DNA from: an uncultured bacterium
GTDB lineage: Bacteria; Oederibacteriota; Oederibacteriia; Oederibacteriales; Oederibacteriaceae
Reading direction: 5' to 3'
NCBI GenBank assembly: GCA_965112635.1
Contig: OZ218778.1
Location: forward strand, 1,088,001 to 1,152,000
Length of the DNA: 64,000 bases
Shown here in pieces: positions 1-6,147 of this stretch (the first letter of the stretch is position 1; every line of letters begins with the position of its first letter). The position numbers and the translations under genes are program-made. The notes under the pieces are model-generated. The model was not told the DNA's origin, did not search any database, and worked only from the letters and a program-made list of their open reading frames with translations.

Positions 1-1524
<1,524 letters not shown>

Positions 1525-1576
1525 ACGGTGCCTGGTCTTGAATCTTTGTATAAATAAATGGAATCCGGGGTCACCT

Positions 1577-1584
1577 ATGAAAAA
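1577..1584. repeat. Sub-terminal inverted repeat of the IS (partner at 2912-2919)
   Basis: ATGAAAAA (1577-1584) is the reverse complement of TTTTTCAT (2912-2919). They lie 3 and 4 nt inside the TCA cores. Confidence 0.7.
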
Positions 1585-1587
1585 AGA

Positions 1588-1593
1588 AGTCAA
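1588..1593 (-). promoter_or_regulatory. -35 half of a circle-junction promoter (TTGACT); -10 half TGTGAT at 2918-2923
   Basis: On the minus strand, joining the ends at the TCA core gives TTGACT-N17-TGTGAT pointing into the transposase. Confidence 0.6.
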
Positions 1594-1619
1594 GCCAAAA
1601 GCACACCCCAAATCCGTTC

Positions 1620-1785
1620 AGAACCTACAAAGGGTCTCTAGTTCCATTTAAGGACTAGGAAGCCAGTCACCTATAGATGCTCAAAGGCATATGATGAAGT
1701 AGGAACCGGTGGCACAATCACATCTTTCGGATTTAGCTGAAATAATCCTCAGCTATTCCATGACCCCGGGGTGCTCGCCGGCCTT
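1620..1785 (-). ncRNA. Bridge RNA/seekRNA-like guide RNA of the IS110 element (3' non-coding end, overlapping the last codons of the recombinase)
   Basis: Two stem-internal-loop-hairpin domains. Loop 1 carries CCGGGGUCA (1761-1769) and AAGAUGUGA (1718-1726), matching both target flanks. Loop 2 carries UUCAUCA (1692-1698) and AUAGGUGA (1667-1674), matching both element ends. Boundaries are approximate. Confidence 0.75.
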
Positions 1786-2799
1786 TTCCTGCCCTAAAGC
1801 AACAAGCCTAAAAGTTTCCTTGCGTTTGAGCATATACCAAATGACTTCTAGGAGTTTTCGAGCCACAGCAACTCTTCCTGTATTGGCGCCATGTTTACTT
1901 TTAACCCGTTCAAACAAATCCTTGAACCGCCGGTCTTTCTTGATTATATGATGACTGTTTTCCACTAGGATCCATCTGAGCCATTTAGAACCTTGCTTTG
2001 TTAACCCCCCGTGTCTTTCTTTATCTGCGGATTGATAGGTTGATGGTGCCAGTCCAGCGTACGAGCATAACTTTTTTGGATTTGGAAACCTGTCTATCTC
2101 TCCAATCTCGCTCAAAATCAGCAGGGCAGAATAGATTCCAATTCCAGGAATGCTCTGCAACATTTGGCCTTCTTCGCTTAGCTGAATCTGTTTATTTAGT
2201 TTTTTTTTGTTCTCCAACAGTTCCTTGTTTACCGCGTCAATCAACCTCAAAAATCCATTTACTTCTTCACGATAGCTCTCTCTTAATTCAAGACCGGCTA
2301 GCCACTTACGGCCTTTCTTGCCGAAAACATCGCTCATTTCATCTTCGTGGCCATCCTTCATTAAAACCGCGTGAATCTTGCACTTTAACATTGTCCTTTG
2401 TGAGACCAGGGAGGCGCGATATCGGAGCACCTCCCTCAGGTCCCTAATTTCTCTTTTGGGAATGTAAGCGCTAGGCACCAGGTCGGCTCTGGATAAGTGG
2501 GCCAGGGTCGTACTGTCTATGGTATCCGTTTTTATTCGTGCTGAGGCGATGGCTTTCACTTTCAAGGGATGCGCTAAGGTAACTAGGGGCAGATGCTTCT
2601 CTATCGTCTCGTAAAAGAACATCCAGTTTCCGGTTGCCTCTACAACAACCTTGGTATCCCTAGGATATTTCCCGAAAAAACTCTCCATCTCCTCCCGGTT
2701 GTTATTTACTCTCCTTTTCTCTAATACCTTTCCTTTATCATCCATCGCTACGACTTGACTGAACTTCTTGTGAAGATCTACCCCCAGATGTATACTCAT
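1753..2799 (-). CDS. IS110 family transposase/recombinase
   Basis: RuvC-like DEDD residues (GVDLHK, VVVEATG, KTDTIDS), IPGIG HhH-like motif, YAGLAPSTYQSA with the catalytic Ser, and VAVARKL. RBS AGGAGG upstream. Confidence 0.95.
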   Translation of the reverse strand: MSIHLGVDLHKKFSQVVAMDDKGKVLEKRRVNNNREEMESFFGKYPRDTKVVVEATGNWMFFYETIEKHLPLVTLAHPLKVKAIASARIKTDTIDSTTLAHLSRADLVPSAYIPKREIRDLREVLRYRASLVSQRTMLKCKIHAVLMKDGHEDEMSDVFGKKGRKWLAGLELRESYREEVNGFLRLIDAVNKELLENKKKLNKQIQLSEEGQMLQSIPGIGIYSALLILSEIGEIDRFPNPKKLCSYAGLAPSTYQSADKERHGGLTKQGSKWLRWILVENSHHIIKKDRRFKDLFERVKSKHGANTGRVAVARKLLEVIWYMLKRKETFRLVALGQEKAGEHPGVME

Positions 2800-2804
2800 T
2801 TTTG

Positions 2805-2905
2805 CCGCACCTCCTTAAAAGATTTGTTCCAGCCTTACGGCTGAGAACCCAGGTTCCCCAAGAACTTTGGTCCTTGAGACCCAGTATATCTTTTAGGATG
2901 TGCGG
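2805..2905 (-). promoter_or_regulatory. Structured 5' leader of the transposase; long stem occluding the RBS
   Basis: CCGCACCTCCTTAAAAGAT (2805-2823) is a near-perfect inverted repeat of ATCTTTTAGGATGTGCGG (2888-2905). The AGGAGG RBS lies within the stem. Internal CAGCC-GUAA-GGCUG tetraloop hairpin. Confidence 0.6.
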
Positions 2906-3053
2906 TTTTCCTTTTTCATCACATCACATCTTGGCAATTGACACGTGATAATTTTCCGCCTCCCTCAGGCTTCCTTTTTCGCCGTTTCTTTCCAAAGAAA
3001 ACTGACTTTGCTACAATCATCCCATGAAATGTTTCTAGGCTTTAAAATACCTT

Positions 3054-3875
3054 ATGAAATTTATGAGAAAGGTCCAGCCTTTGACACCAGAGCTTATTGA
3101 TACCCACGCTCATCTGCACGGCCAGACCTATGCCAATGAGATCGAACAGGTGGTCGAGCGGGCTAAACAGACCGGCGTCCTCACTATGGTCACCATCGGC
3201 ACCAGCGTCCCGGACAGCAGGGAAGCGGTGCAGTTGGCGGACAAGTTCCCCGGGGTATATGCCAGCCTGGGAGTGCATCCAGACCATTATAGTCTGTGGG
3301 ATAAATCCAGTTTTAATTCCCTCAAGGAAATTGCACTTCAAAATCCCAAAGTCGTGGCTATTGGCGAGACCGGACTAGATTTTTTCCACCACAAGGATGA
3401 AGAGGCCCGGAAACAGCAGGCAGAGGTTTTTCGCCAACATATCCAGCTGGCCCGGAAACTGCACCTGCCTCTCATCATCCATTCCCGAGAGGCCCATCCC
3501 CAGACACTGCAGGTCCTTCGGGAGGAAAAGGCCGGGGAGCTTGGTGGAATAATTCATTGTTTTACCTCGGACTGGGAGGCTGCCAAGGATTATCTGGACC
3601 TGGGGTTTATGGTCGCTCTGGGCGGTATAATCACCTTTGGAAAAAAAGCAGCCCAGCTGGAAGATACGGCCAAAAAACTGCCCGAGGACCGCATTATTTT
3701 GGAAACGGACTGCCCATACCTGGCACCCGCGCCTTTCCGGGGTAAGCGCAATGAGCCGGCCTATGTGCGCCAGATCGCGGAAAAGCTGGCCGGACTCAGG
3801 ATGACCAGCCTGGAAAAGATCGCGGAATCCACGACAGCCAACGCAAAAAAGGTTTTCTCCTTTAATCGCGGGTAG
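3054..3875 (+). CDS. tatD: TatD family hydrolase/DNase
   Basis: DTHAH, GVHP, IGETGLD, IIHSREA, IIHCF, LETDCPYLAP...RGKRNEP motifs. The start may be slightly downstream (e.g. TTG 3081). Confidence 0.93.
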   Translation: MKFMRKVQPLTPELIDTHAHLHGQTYANEIEQVVERAKQTGVLTMVTIGTSVPDSREAVQLADKFPGVYASLGVHPDHYSLWDKSSFNSLKEIALQNPKVVAIGETGLDFFHHKDEEARKQQAEVFRQHIQLARKLHLPLIIHSREAHPQTLQVLREEKAGELGGIIHCFTSDWEAAKDYLDLGFMVALGGIITFGKKAAQLEDTAKKLPEDRIILETDCPYLAPAPFRGKRNEPAYVRQIAEKLAGLRMTSLEKIAESTTANAKKVFSFNRG

Positions 3876-3930
3876 GGTAGGATTGAAGGACAGTCGTTAA
3901 AGACATTGAACCGAACAGGGAAAGGTGTTT

Positions 3931-6147
3931 ATGGGGAAATTTTGCTGGAAAATCCTTTTGGGGCTATGGCTGGCGGTCCTGTCCGGTAATGCTTTTGGGG
4001 GCAGCACCGGTATCACTGAATTTGTAGACCTGGGCCCTGTTTACAACTGCAGTGTTTTCGCCGACCCGCAGGCCTATCGCCAGGCCACAGGCGACGGCCT
4101 GGTCATGGGGTCCCTGGGGAACATCTATTTTCCCGACAACGGTTTCAACAACCAGGGCTGCTTCATCCCCCTGACCCTCACGGCCATCACCATACCGCTC
4201 ACTTTTTACGCGACCAGCCAGGAAATCAATTCCAAGGTTTCCAGCAACCCGCCGGCTTTGTTCCGGGACAGCCAGGGTTATCCCAACGTGGTCATGGTCC
4301 ATTTCCCAGCCCTTTATATGACACAGATGGTCGCGGTCCAGACCCCCACTCCCGTGCCCATGCCGACCCCGCCGCCGACCAGGACGCCCGTGGGAAATAT
4401 ACGCCTGCCCGGTTATTTGATGGAGTCAGATGAGACGCCTCCCAGTCCCGGCAACCTGACCCTTACGGCTCTCCAACCCAATATCTTACCCAACGCAGCC
4501 GGATTGACCCTGACCGCAGGAGGGCTCACTTTGACCGCCTCCACCCTAGCCGGGGGAGTTACGATAACCGCCGTTTCCACCGGGTCCAAATACAACGCGG
4601 TCAGGCTGACGGACAAGGATTTTAAGCTCAATTTTGAAACACCCGTGGATACCATCATCCTGTTGCTGGCCGCGGAGGGCCAACCCGGCCAGAAGCAGGG
4701 GACCAACCTCCCTCTCAAGATCACCTGTATCTATGACGACGATATAGACCAGACCGGGATCGGCCAGGTGCCTCTGGCCCTGGGGCCCGCGGCCGCCACC
4801 AGCCTCACCCTCACTTCTTCCATTTTCAGCGAAGGGCACGAATGCCTGGCGAGCTTCCCGGTCGTCCGGGACAGCGGGGATATTGTCCCAAGCACCATAT
4901 CCTGGTACGCCTATGCCATCCATCCGGACCGGCTTAAAAACCTTAAGCAATTGGTGCTCAACTGTCCGGGATCGGGAGGGACCGCGGGAAGCGTGCTATT
5001 GGGGGCTGTTTCCTATAAAAGGACGCCCAATCCGGAGCTGGTGCTCAATGCGCCGGCCTCGATCGAGTCGTATACCCCGTTTTTAGTGACGGTCACGGCC
5101 ATGGACGGCTATGGATTCGTGGACACCGGTTACCGGGGGATCGTGCATTTTGCGACCACGGACCCCTTCTTTATCACGGTGACCGCGGACACGGCCACAC
5201 CCATGCCCACCCCCTCCGAGGAGTTCATGGCGGCCGGGGTCACGCCAGCGGCCCTGCCGGCTGACTATACTTTCAAGCCGGAACAAAAAGGGCAGGCCGT
5301 CATACCGGTAAGCCTGGCCAGCACGGGTTCCTTCACCCTTTCCGCCCAGGACACCAAGAACGCCAAGCAGACGGCTACCGTCCCGGTCGCAACCGCCAAA
5401 AACAAACTGCTGGCGATTCTCGCGGACCGGAGGCTCTCCAGCATCAACCTGTGCCTTTTGCCCACGGCCTATCTGGGCCAGTACAAACATGATTCAGGGT
5501 GGGGGTTCACCAATTCTTACGCCTTTTCCTGGTATATCGGGAATATTTATTACGTGGAGGGCGGACAGACCAATTACACCCAGCCGCTGGGCACCTATCT
5601 TCTGACCGGGGACCTCAAAGCCGGAATGCTAGGGGAAACAGACTGGTCTCCGGCCCTGGCCGGCGGCGTCAGCGGAGGTTTCCTGTTCGTCTCGGGATCC
5701 AATCCAGGCCAGGCCCAATCCCTGAGCCAGTTCAGCACAAATAGTCTCCTCAACTTTTTTACCGTGGGGAGCAAAAAAGTCTGGAACGGGGCCGTTCACG
5801 CCGGGTTTGTCTGGGGCAATTTCCCTGGCTTCATGGCCACCCTGAGCCCCTATGTCCTGTCCACCCCGGACCAGCTGACCGCAGACACCCAGACCGGGCT
5901 CACCGGGAGCGCCAACCTGGACCAGGCGCCCAAACACGCGGTCTACGTGGGATTCAACTATCCCCTGTTCGGGGAACTGAGCTTGAAAACCGAGGTTGTG
6001 TATCCCTACGAGCTGGGGAACGTTTACCTCATCAACACGCAGATCTCCCATTTCACCAGTTTTGACCTGTCCTATTTGAGGCACAAGAACGGCTTTCAGC
6101 TGATGGGCTACGTGAACATCAGGGTACAGTTCTATCCCTCAGATTGA
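3931..6147 (+). CDS. Secreted/surface protein: signal peptide, Pro/Thr-rich linkers, Ig-like module, C-terminal YjbH-like beta-rich domain
   Basis: Signal-peptide-like N-terminus ending in AFG. TPTPVPMPTPPPTRTP and TATPMPTPS linkers. Ig-like segment TVTAMDGYG...GYRGIVHF...LPADYTF. DLKAGMLGETDWSPALAGG resembles YjbH barrels (by eye). Confidence 0.55.
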   Translation: MGKFCWKILLGLWLAVLSGNAFGGSTGITEFVDLGPVYNCSVFADPQAYRQATGDGLVMGSLGNIYFPDNGFNNQGCFIPLTLTAITIPLTFYATSQEINSKVSSNPPALFRDSQGYPNVVMVHFPALYMTQMVAVQTPTPVPMPTPPPTRTPVGNIRLPGYLMESDETPPSPGNLTLTALQPNILPNAAGLTLTAGGLTLTASTLAGGVTITAVSTGSKYNAVRLTDKDFKLNFETPVDTIILLLAAEGQPGQKQGTNLPLKITCIYDDDIDQTGIGQVPLALGPAAATSLTLTSSIFSEGHECLASFPVVRDSGDIVPSTISWYAYAIHPDRLKNLKQLVLNCPGSGGTAGSVLLGAVSYKRTPNPELVLNAPASIESYTPFLVTVTAMDGYGFVDTGYRGIVHFATTDPFFITVTADTATPMPTPSEEFMAAGVTPAALPADYTFKPEQKGQAVIPVSLASTGSFTLSAQDTKNAKQTATVPVATAKNKLLAILADRRLSSINLCLLPTAYLGQYKHDSGWGFTNSYAFSWYIGNIYYVEGGQTNYTQPLGTYLLTGDLKAGMLGETDWSPALAGGVSGGFLFVSGSNPGQAQSLSQFSTNSLLNFFTVGSKKVWNGAVHAGFVWGNFPGFMATLSPYVLSTPDQLTADTQTGLTGSANLDQAPKHAVYVGFNYPLFGELSLKTEVVYPYELGNVYLINTQISHFTSFDLSYLRHKNGFQLMGYVNIRVQFYPSD

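Follow-up and report, generated by a model that had tools for sequence, protein, structure and literature searches.

An intact IS1111-type element with probable RNA-guided insertion into a REP-like repeat of an uncultured bacterium

In this study, we characterised an insertion sequence of 1,353 bp located at 1574-2926 (minus strand) of the window, i.e. the whole stretch of 64,000 nucleotides that was analysed. We consider it very probable that a single explanation covers the whole of it, namely an active-looking IS1111-type element of the IS110 family with RNA-guided insertion. It belongs to a known class, that of elements with bridge/seek RNAs (described in 2024), of which it is an ordinary example and a further member. 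The original prediction had proposed an intact IS110/IS1111 element with an RNA whose four guides can be read against its own target and donor. All the strings and coordinates that it gave are present in the sequence, and its central proposal is borne out by the protein families, by the position of the RNA in the right end and by the covariation of both stems and guides among relatives. Its description of the core and of the extent of two guides had to be amended.

Methods

Element boundaries were set by the divergence of flanks among copies and by comparison with unoccupied sites, a single copy of the core triplet (2924-2926) being counted in the span. Residue numbers of the IS621 protein were taken from PMC11208158.

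Relatives were gathered as 160 loci (transposases 40-55% identical) from metagenome and genome contigs. A scan of the genome contigs with a single protein returned no relative, and the scan was repeated with an alignment. The subterminal inverted repeats served to define the element ends, both in the window element and in 63 of the 160 loci. For the RNA consensus, 19 right-end regions were aligned and analysed with RNAalifold, and a covariance model (hereafter R1) was built on the result. The pairing that RNAalifold returned between guide columns 26-28 and 80-82 was treated as spurious and left out of the model. Guides were read at fixed model positions; all four regions were present in 45 of the 50 R1 matches in elements with defined ends, which yielded 32 non-redundant RNA types. 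Anchored exact-run matching of flanks to the right end was also tried and found too strict, and the model-aligned guide columns were used instead.

Results

The element, its copies and its ends

The genome (a single 2.88-Mb contig) carries four full copies of the element, all in the same orientation. One of them, at genome position 2,021,907, is an exact second copy of the window element, matching it at each of the 1,353 bp; the remaining two share one sequence, which is 92.6% identical to the window copy and differs from it at 100 positions. Besides these four copies and one 354-bp fragment of a 79%-identical relative, no further IS110 paralogue was found in the genome.

The non-coding ends measure 179 nt on the right and 127 nt on the left. 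Comparison of the two variants placed 100 of the 100 differences in coding sequence (73 of them at third codon positions); the 127-nt left end and the 179 non-coding nt of the right end do not differ between the two. The 177-nt RNA described below holds one difference, at 1769, i.e. the distal base of the right target guide. Such invariance of the ends and the RNA would fit strong constraint on both, or exchange between copies. The left subterminal inverted repeat, ATGAAAAAGG (2910-2919, minus strand), begins 4 nt inside the core, and the right one, ATGAAAAAAG (1577-1586, plus strand), stops 3 nt inside it; the two share 8 contiguous matches and 9/10 overall.

A -35-like hexamer, TTGACT (1588-1593, minus strand), was read by eye near the right end. 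In a circular form of the element it could belong to a junction promoter, in which TTGACT (1593-1588) would be followed, after 17 nt, by TGTGAT (2923-2918), a putative -10-like hexamer without the conserved A at position 2. At this putative promoter the relatives have TTGACA in the same place and TTAAAT, TAATAT or TAACAT in the left end, which, as sequences, are better junction hexamers than those of the window element. A consensus scan of 1400-3100 returned four promoter-like sites, all on the plus strand, versus 2.2 expected, with no promoter-like site on the minus strand and no terminator-like site.

The neighbours of the element are all on the plus strand: a 470-aa frame with no Pfam match (112-1524, open at the window start), a TatD-family DNase gene (3054-3875, PF01026 at 7e-86) and a 740-aa frame whose N-terminus is hydrophobic (3925-6147).

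Element ends were also found on short contigs of other metagenomes (runs X1, X2 and X4), some of them 100% identical and with flanks absent from this genome, and internal pieces on contigs of the same runs were 90-99% identical. The contigs of four metagenome runs yielded no joint, and so neither a circle junction nor an empty site at this locus.

A peculiar arrangement was observed at the ends of the genome contig (G000:C1:2875643-2876006 joined to 1-1372; L005, L004, L198), where the 354-bp 3' fragment of the 79%-identical relative is followed by half a repeat and then by a full element copy. The other flank of this copy, AGTCTTGAAACTTGA, suits the guide of the fragment better than the copy's own guide. 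The arrangement could have arisen by nested insertion or by recombination between elements, or it could be an artefact of assembly at the ends of the contig.

The transposase

The transposase gene (1753-2799, minus strand) is the sole long reading frame of the element and is intact. It encodes 348 aa (plus stop), with a DEDD (RuvC-like) N-terminal domain and a C-terminal Tnp domain containing a conserved serine. The protein matches PF01548 (DEDD_Tnp_IS110, 6.1e-24) and PF02371 (Transposase_20, 1.9e-24) in Pfam, and the NCBIfam model NF033542, 'IS110 family RNA-guided transposase', at 244 bits for a cut-off of 140. Residues D8, E54, D92, D95 and S257 are conserved in an alignment of 24 sequences (alignment A1, including 23 homologues), and these catalytic residues line up with the DTAK, EATG, KTDTVD and YESG stretches of the IS621 protein. 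The solved structure of the latter (8wt6) is the best PDB match (E 2.3e-13), the best stretch covering residues 173-326 and a weaker one residues 4-125. The motif at the catalytic serine reads GLAPSTYQSA, i.e. SA, so that the serine is present and A stands for G; SA is also found in the two closest homologues and SG in the other 21 of alignment A1. In a word-based search, the nearest non-self proteins were 75% and 71% identical, followed by others at about 50-56%.

The right target guide is encoded in the last transposase codons, P-G-V-M (1753-1788, minus strand). A C-terminal 'GVM' tail occurs in 9 of the 24 sequences of alignment A1; its recurrence is probably due to a conserved RNA and a shared half-target, and not to a conserved protein tail.

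The guide RNA and its fold

A predicted bridge/seek RNA gene was located at 1612-1788 (minus strand), where a target-binding domain is followed by a donor-binding domain and the last 12 transposase codons are overlapped. This is the sole match of model R1 in the window (116 bits, E 2.7e-31). A search of window positions 1-6000 against Rfam 15 (E <= 1) returned no family at the RNA; two weak matches elsewhere (a snoRNA and a frameshift element, E 0.4-0.9) were discarded as unrelated. None of the sequencing runs listed for the element is on record as RNA.

The segment 1620-1785 (minus strand), put forward in the original prediction as a two-domain RNA, does fold in this way: its single-sequence minimum free energy (MFE) structure gives both domains, with an energy that is not in itself unusual (-51.3 kcal/mol, z = -1.51; 15 of 200 shuffles equally stable). 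All positions that follow in this paragraph are on the minus strand. The target-binding domain occupies 80 nt (1704-1783), with an inner hairpin at 1759-1729. Its outer stem is formed by GGCCGGCGAGCAC (1783-1771) and GUGCCACCGGUU (1715-1704), and the hairpin pairs UAGCUGA (1755-1749) with UCAGCUA (1740-1734). The donor-binding domain (1624-1703) is closed by CCUAC (1703-1699) and GUAGG (1628-1624) and contains an inner hairpin of AUGC (1690-1687) and GCAU (1680-1677). The donor closing stem was found at the same place, with different sequences, in single folds of at least five relatives, while a longer-context MFE fold of the window sequence showed an alternative pairing in its place.

The loops of this structure carry the four guides, again on the minus strand. 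The right target guide (RTG), CCGGGGUCA (1761-1769), is predicted to pair with the transposase-sense strand of the core and right target, with 9/9 agreement to CCGGGGTCA on the plus strand (1565-1573). The left target guide (LTG), AAGAUGUGA (1718-1726), i.e. AAGAUGUG(A), is the same as the left target plus core in the transposase sense and is complementary at 9/9 positions to TCACATCTT on the plus strand (2924-2932). In the donor-binding domain, the right donor guide (RDG) is UUCAUCA (1692-1698), of which CAUCA (1696-1692) would pair with the core and the first left-end bases (2922-2926, plus strand), giving 5 nt at the core and 6/9 overall. The left donor guide (LDG), AUAGGUGA (1667-1674), is the same as the last right-end bases plus core, all 8 of its 8 positions being complementary to TCACCTAT on the plus strand (1571-1578).

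The guide matches are far beyond chance. On both strands of the 2.88-Mb genome, the two target-loop 9-mers occur 126 and 21 times (expectation per 166-nt window of 3.5e-3 and 5.8e-4), and the only places where both fall within 166 nt, in the same order, are the two identical copies of the element.

Conservation and covariation among relatives

Model R1 matched 88 places in 177 sources (E <= 0.01). The position of the RNA relative to the gene was read for the 50 R1 matches in elements with defined ends; in these the RNA sits 3' of the transposase gene, within the right end.

Compensatory changes support the fold. RNAalifold returned 27 pairs for the 19 aligned sequences, 15 of them with compensatory changes. 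For 47 distinct sequences, in an alignment that was fitted to R1 and thus somewhat favours structure, 94.4% of cells were paired (versus 75.7% when shuffled and 33-41% when slid), and compensatory changes were present in 22 of the 24 stem pairs. They affected all 11 pairs of the target-domain outer stem, in which 97.1% of cells were paired, and four of the five pairs of the donor inner hairpin.

The check suggested with the original prediction, i.e. covariation between loop strands and insertion sites in homologues, was carried out on the 32 RNA types, and all four guides were found to covary with their flanks or ends. Over the seven non-core positions, the mean number of matches with the element's own sequence was 4.59 for the RTG (3.42 when permuted), 4.62 for the LTG (2.44), 5.41 for the RDG (4.02) and 5.25 for the LDG (4.56). 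For each of the four guides, the own value was reached in 0 of 10,000 permutations, a test that ignores shared ancestry and measures association, related elements having guides and targets in common.

Individual elements illustrate this association. GUUUUUCA occurs with flank TGAAAAAC (L093/L152), GGGACA with TGTCCC (L048), and a 51%-identical multi-copy element combines GGCCUG with flank GGCCTG. Likewise, the LDG shifts in step with the element's own end sequence, reading AUGAGUG, AUAGAUG, AUAAGUG or AUGGAUG in relatives. Within the genome studied here, the fragment of the 79%-identical relative has an LTG of AGACUUG (AGAUGUG in the element), which fits a second repeat subfamily, GGGGTCAAGTCTTGA.

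One copy of the 51%-identical relative (L125:2186-2280) has its right end joined at TGA to the sequence that follows the LTG in another copy of the RNA gene, and a second, partial R1 match (56 bits) is present there. It looks as if this element had inserted into DNA encoding its own guide.

Core and guide register

Copies of the core are present at the right-end junction (1571-1573) and at the left-end junction (2924-2926), both reading TCA on the plus strand, and a 3-nt core had been deduced from them. The relatives point to a shorter one. All 63 relatives with defined ends read TGA at the 5' junction; at the 3' junction they share TG, after which A, G, T or C may stand. Because the base after TG varies at the 3' junction, the shared core is, on this comparison, most likely TG (CA on the plus strand of the window) rather than 3 nt. 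The window element is the only one with A as third base in both target and donor, and in several lineages the third RTG base shifts along with the 3' junction.

The same comparison bears on the length of the target guides, for which 9 + 9 nt had been proposed. Both 9/9 matches hold, but the LTG AAGAUGUGA ends in an A that stays unchanged across different targets in 32 of 33 rows, the remaining row (L140) being poorly aligned. Because this base does not track the target, the target guides are better described as about 9 + 8 nt including the core. At other copies of the element, mismatches to the guides are tolerated at distal positions.

The RDG had been matched to TTCATCA at 2915-2921, with CAUCA against 2922-2926 as an alternative. 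Since the family alignment shows the RDG extending up to the core and no further, the alternative is the pairing to be retained; UUCAUCA matches 7/7 only in the wrong register, 5 nt in from the end, which is best read as a reflection of the tandem CATCA-CATCA at the element end.

The bases next to the core in the bottom-strand guides follow a pattern of their own. In the LDG, the base after the core tracks the first base of the right target in 6 of the 10 rows where this is not A (i.e. C, G or T) and in 23 of the 23 rows where it is A. In the LTG, 32 of 33 rows have A after the core, which is also the base with which the element begins.

Target repeat and insertion sites

All copies of the element lie between ...GGGG-TCA and (C/A)(A/C/G)TCTTG, in the motif GGGGTCA-CATCTTGACA. 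In the window, the left half of the interrupted REP-like motif is GGAATCCGGGG (1560-1570, plus strand), which precedes all copies and the unoccupied sites, and the right half, delimited by comparison of copies and unoccupied sites, is CATCTTGGCAATTGACAC (2927-2944, plus strand). The genome contains 19 unoccupied sites of the form GGGGTCnnnTCTT[GT]A, three of which are exact GGGGTCACATCTTG with a single TCA; the target CCGGGG-TCA-CATCTT, as first predicted, therefore exists in uninterrupted form. A search of the window for the 15-nt target with up to 3 mismatches gave 3 matches versus 1.78 expected and no empty site there. Because copies can be compared with unoccupied sites that have a single TCA, the element is seen to insert into a repeated motif with no duplication beyond the short core. 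In metagenome contigs of other runs, the same element end adjoins other flanks ending in GGGTCA.

Inverted pairs of the motif (GGGGTCACATCTTGACA...) flank 278-aa genes at G000:C1:1775600-1776520 (L196) and 1522657-1523578 (L197). These genes match Y1_Tnp in Pfam and 'REP-associated tyrosine transposase' in NCBIfam (80.5 bits, cut-off 80), and five full paralogues and two fragments of REP-associated tyrosine transposase are present in the genome. Because the inverted motif pairs flank such genes, we regard the target as a REP-like repeat; at least three subfamilies of it occur in the genome.

Discussion

A model of insertion

The proposed mechanism combines the features described above with what is known of IS621, ISEc11 and ISPa11, by analogy with which transcription, binding of the RNA by the protein, a circular intermediate and the chemistry are attributed to this element. 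An RNA of about 170 nt with two internal loops would be transcribed from the segment that overlaps the last transposase codons and continues just beyond the gene. In the target loop, CCGGGGUCA would pair with one strand of the DNA on the right side of the crossover point and AAGAUGUG with the opposite strand on the left side, the two guides together specifying AAGATG-TG-ACCCCGG, i.e. the REP-like repeat of this genome. In the donor loop, CAUCA and AUAGGUG would read the joined ends of the excised circular element. The RNA-bound DEDD/Ser recombinase would then bring circle and target together and exchange strands at the TG core, with a scarless, orientation-specific insertion as the outcome. 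Natural covariation of guides and targets also suggests that the system may be reprogrammable.

Alternative explanations

The role of the donor-binding domain is where another reading has most to be said for it. The guide could be the 80-nt target domain alone, acting as a short seekRNA, with the ends recognised by the protein, which would use the subterminal inverted repeats to do so; the agreement between the second domain and the ends would then be a leftover or would serve another purpose, such as processing or stability. According to the part of PMC11187229 that deals with ISEc11, a short seekRNA of 70-100 nt with target matches only was enough for transposition to occur; what the long form does was left undecided there. 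The short RDG of the window element agrees with this idea, and the long subterminal repeats of IS1111 elements could bind the protein. We nevertheless hold it to be improbable, since both donor guides covary with the element's own ends across the 32 RNA types, the LDG changes in step with five different end sequences and the donor inner hairpin shows compensatory changes. Moreover, the donor domain is free of differences between variants that are 9.8% apart in coding sequence.

If the RNA were left out altogether, the internal copies of flank and end sequences might act as DNA, offering the transposase additional sites to bind; transposons do commonly contain internal repeats of their end sequences. 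Such sites would hardly account for compensatory changes in 22 of 24 stem pairs, which point to selection on an RNA fold, nor for guides that match both strands of a target outside the element, and relatives in the family have been shown to bind such RNAs; this explanation is very improbable. Scarcely credible, finally, is that the element is a dead relic whose matches merely record its last insertion. The reading frame is intact and the catalytic residues are retained, two identical copies occupy different loci, additional flanks appear in other metagenome contigs and the two variants have exactly the same non-coding ends. Nor would the covariation of guides across 32 RNA types be explained if the matches were a mere trace of the last insertion. 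RNA-guided insertion by an IS1111-type element, with both domains of the RNA taking part, is thus the reading that we retain.

Comparison with known systems

The IS1111 group is defined by subterminal inverted repeats of 7-17 bp, and a bridge RNA was predicted in the right end of 93% of its elements (Durrant et al. 2024, PMC11208160). Siddiquee et al. (2024, PMC11187229) list as its traits the subterminal inverted repeats, a downstream non-coding region and seekRNAs, the latter being 70-100 nt within longer forms of 145-170 nt, in which the top-strand match precedes the bottom-strand match. In the same source the transposase is described as 330-350 aa long with a GL-P----S(t)G motif, and SG, TG or TA follows the serine in the family.

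With ISEc11, ISPa11 and ISKpn4, all of the IS1111 group, the window element shares a 330-350-aa DEDD + Tnp transposase, subterminal inverted repeats and a guide RNA downstream. It also shares a target domain of about 80 nt in an RNA of about 150-170 nt, a top-strand match (here CCGGGGUCA) placed 5' of the bottom-strand one (AAGAUGUGA) and no target duplication beyond the core. Like ISPa11, which uses the Pseudomonas aeruginosa REP, it inserts into a repeated REP-like sequence. It differs from the group as described by SA after the serine, by an RTG inside the coding sequence, by its host of an uncultured lineage and by its target, here the GGGGTC...TTGACA repeat found on either side of REP-associated tyrosine transposase genes.

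IS621 (Durrant et al. 2024, PMC11208160; Hiraizumi et al. 2024, PMC11208158) resembles the element in its two-loop RNA, in guides on opposite strands around a short core, in its DEDD + serine active site and in having a REP element as target. In IS621, however, the RNA is in the left end, the LTG comes before the RTG and the core is CT, whereas here the RNA is in the right end, the RTG comes before the LTG and the core would be TG; its protein is only a distant sequence match to the window transposase (E 2.3e-13). ISPpu9 and ISPpu10 of Pseudomonas putida are likewise IS110-family elements with several copies in repetitive extragenic sequences, but they belong to another subgroup and another host. 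REP targets are on record for IS621, ISPa11 and ISPpu9.

Significance

Knowledge of the bridge/seek RNA class is unchanged by this element. What it adds is one natural RNA-guided recombinase ortholog from an uncultured lineage, with a fully readable guide code, for which four guides, the target repeat, unoccupied sites, a second in-genome guide variant and dozens of relatives with different targets are documented together. It may serve as an example for annotation and could be taken up as a candidate in recombinase mining, and it illustrates how strongly the non-coding ends can be conserved relative to the gene.

The pattern of bases next to the core raises a further idea, which we put forward tentatively and regard as doubtful: in the IS1111 clade represented here, the base 3' of the core in both bottom-strand guides may be set to the recombined junctions and not to the substrates. 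This would amount to a one-base 'handshake' on the guide strands opposite to those described for IS621. The RNA would then also read the integrated junctions, which would bear on excision and on direction control in IS1111 elements. Taken with the in-genome guide variants matched to two REP subfamilies, it would make the clade a natural series for studying retargeting.
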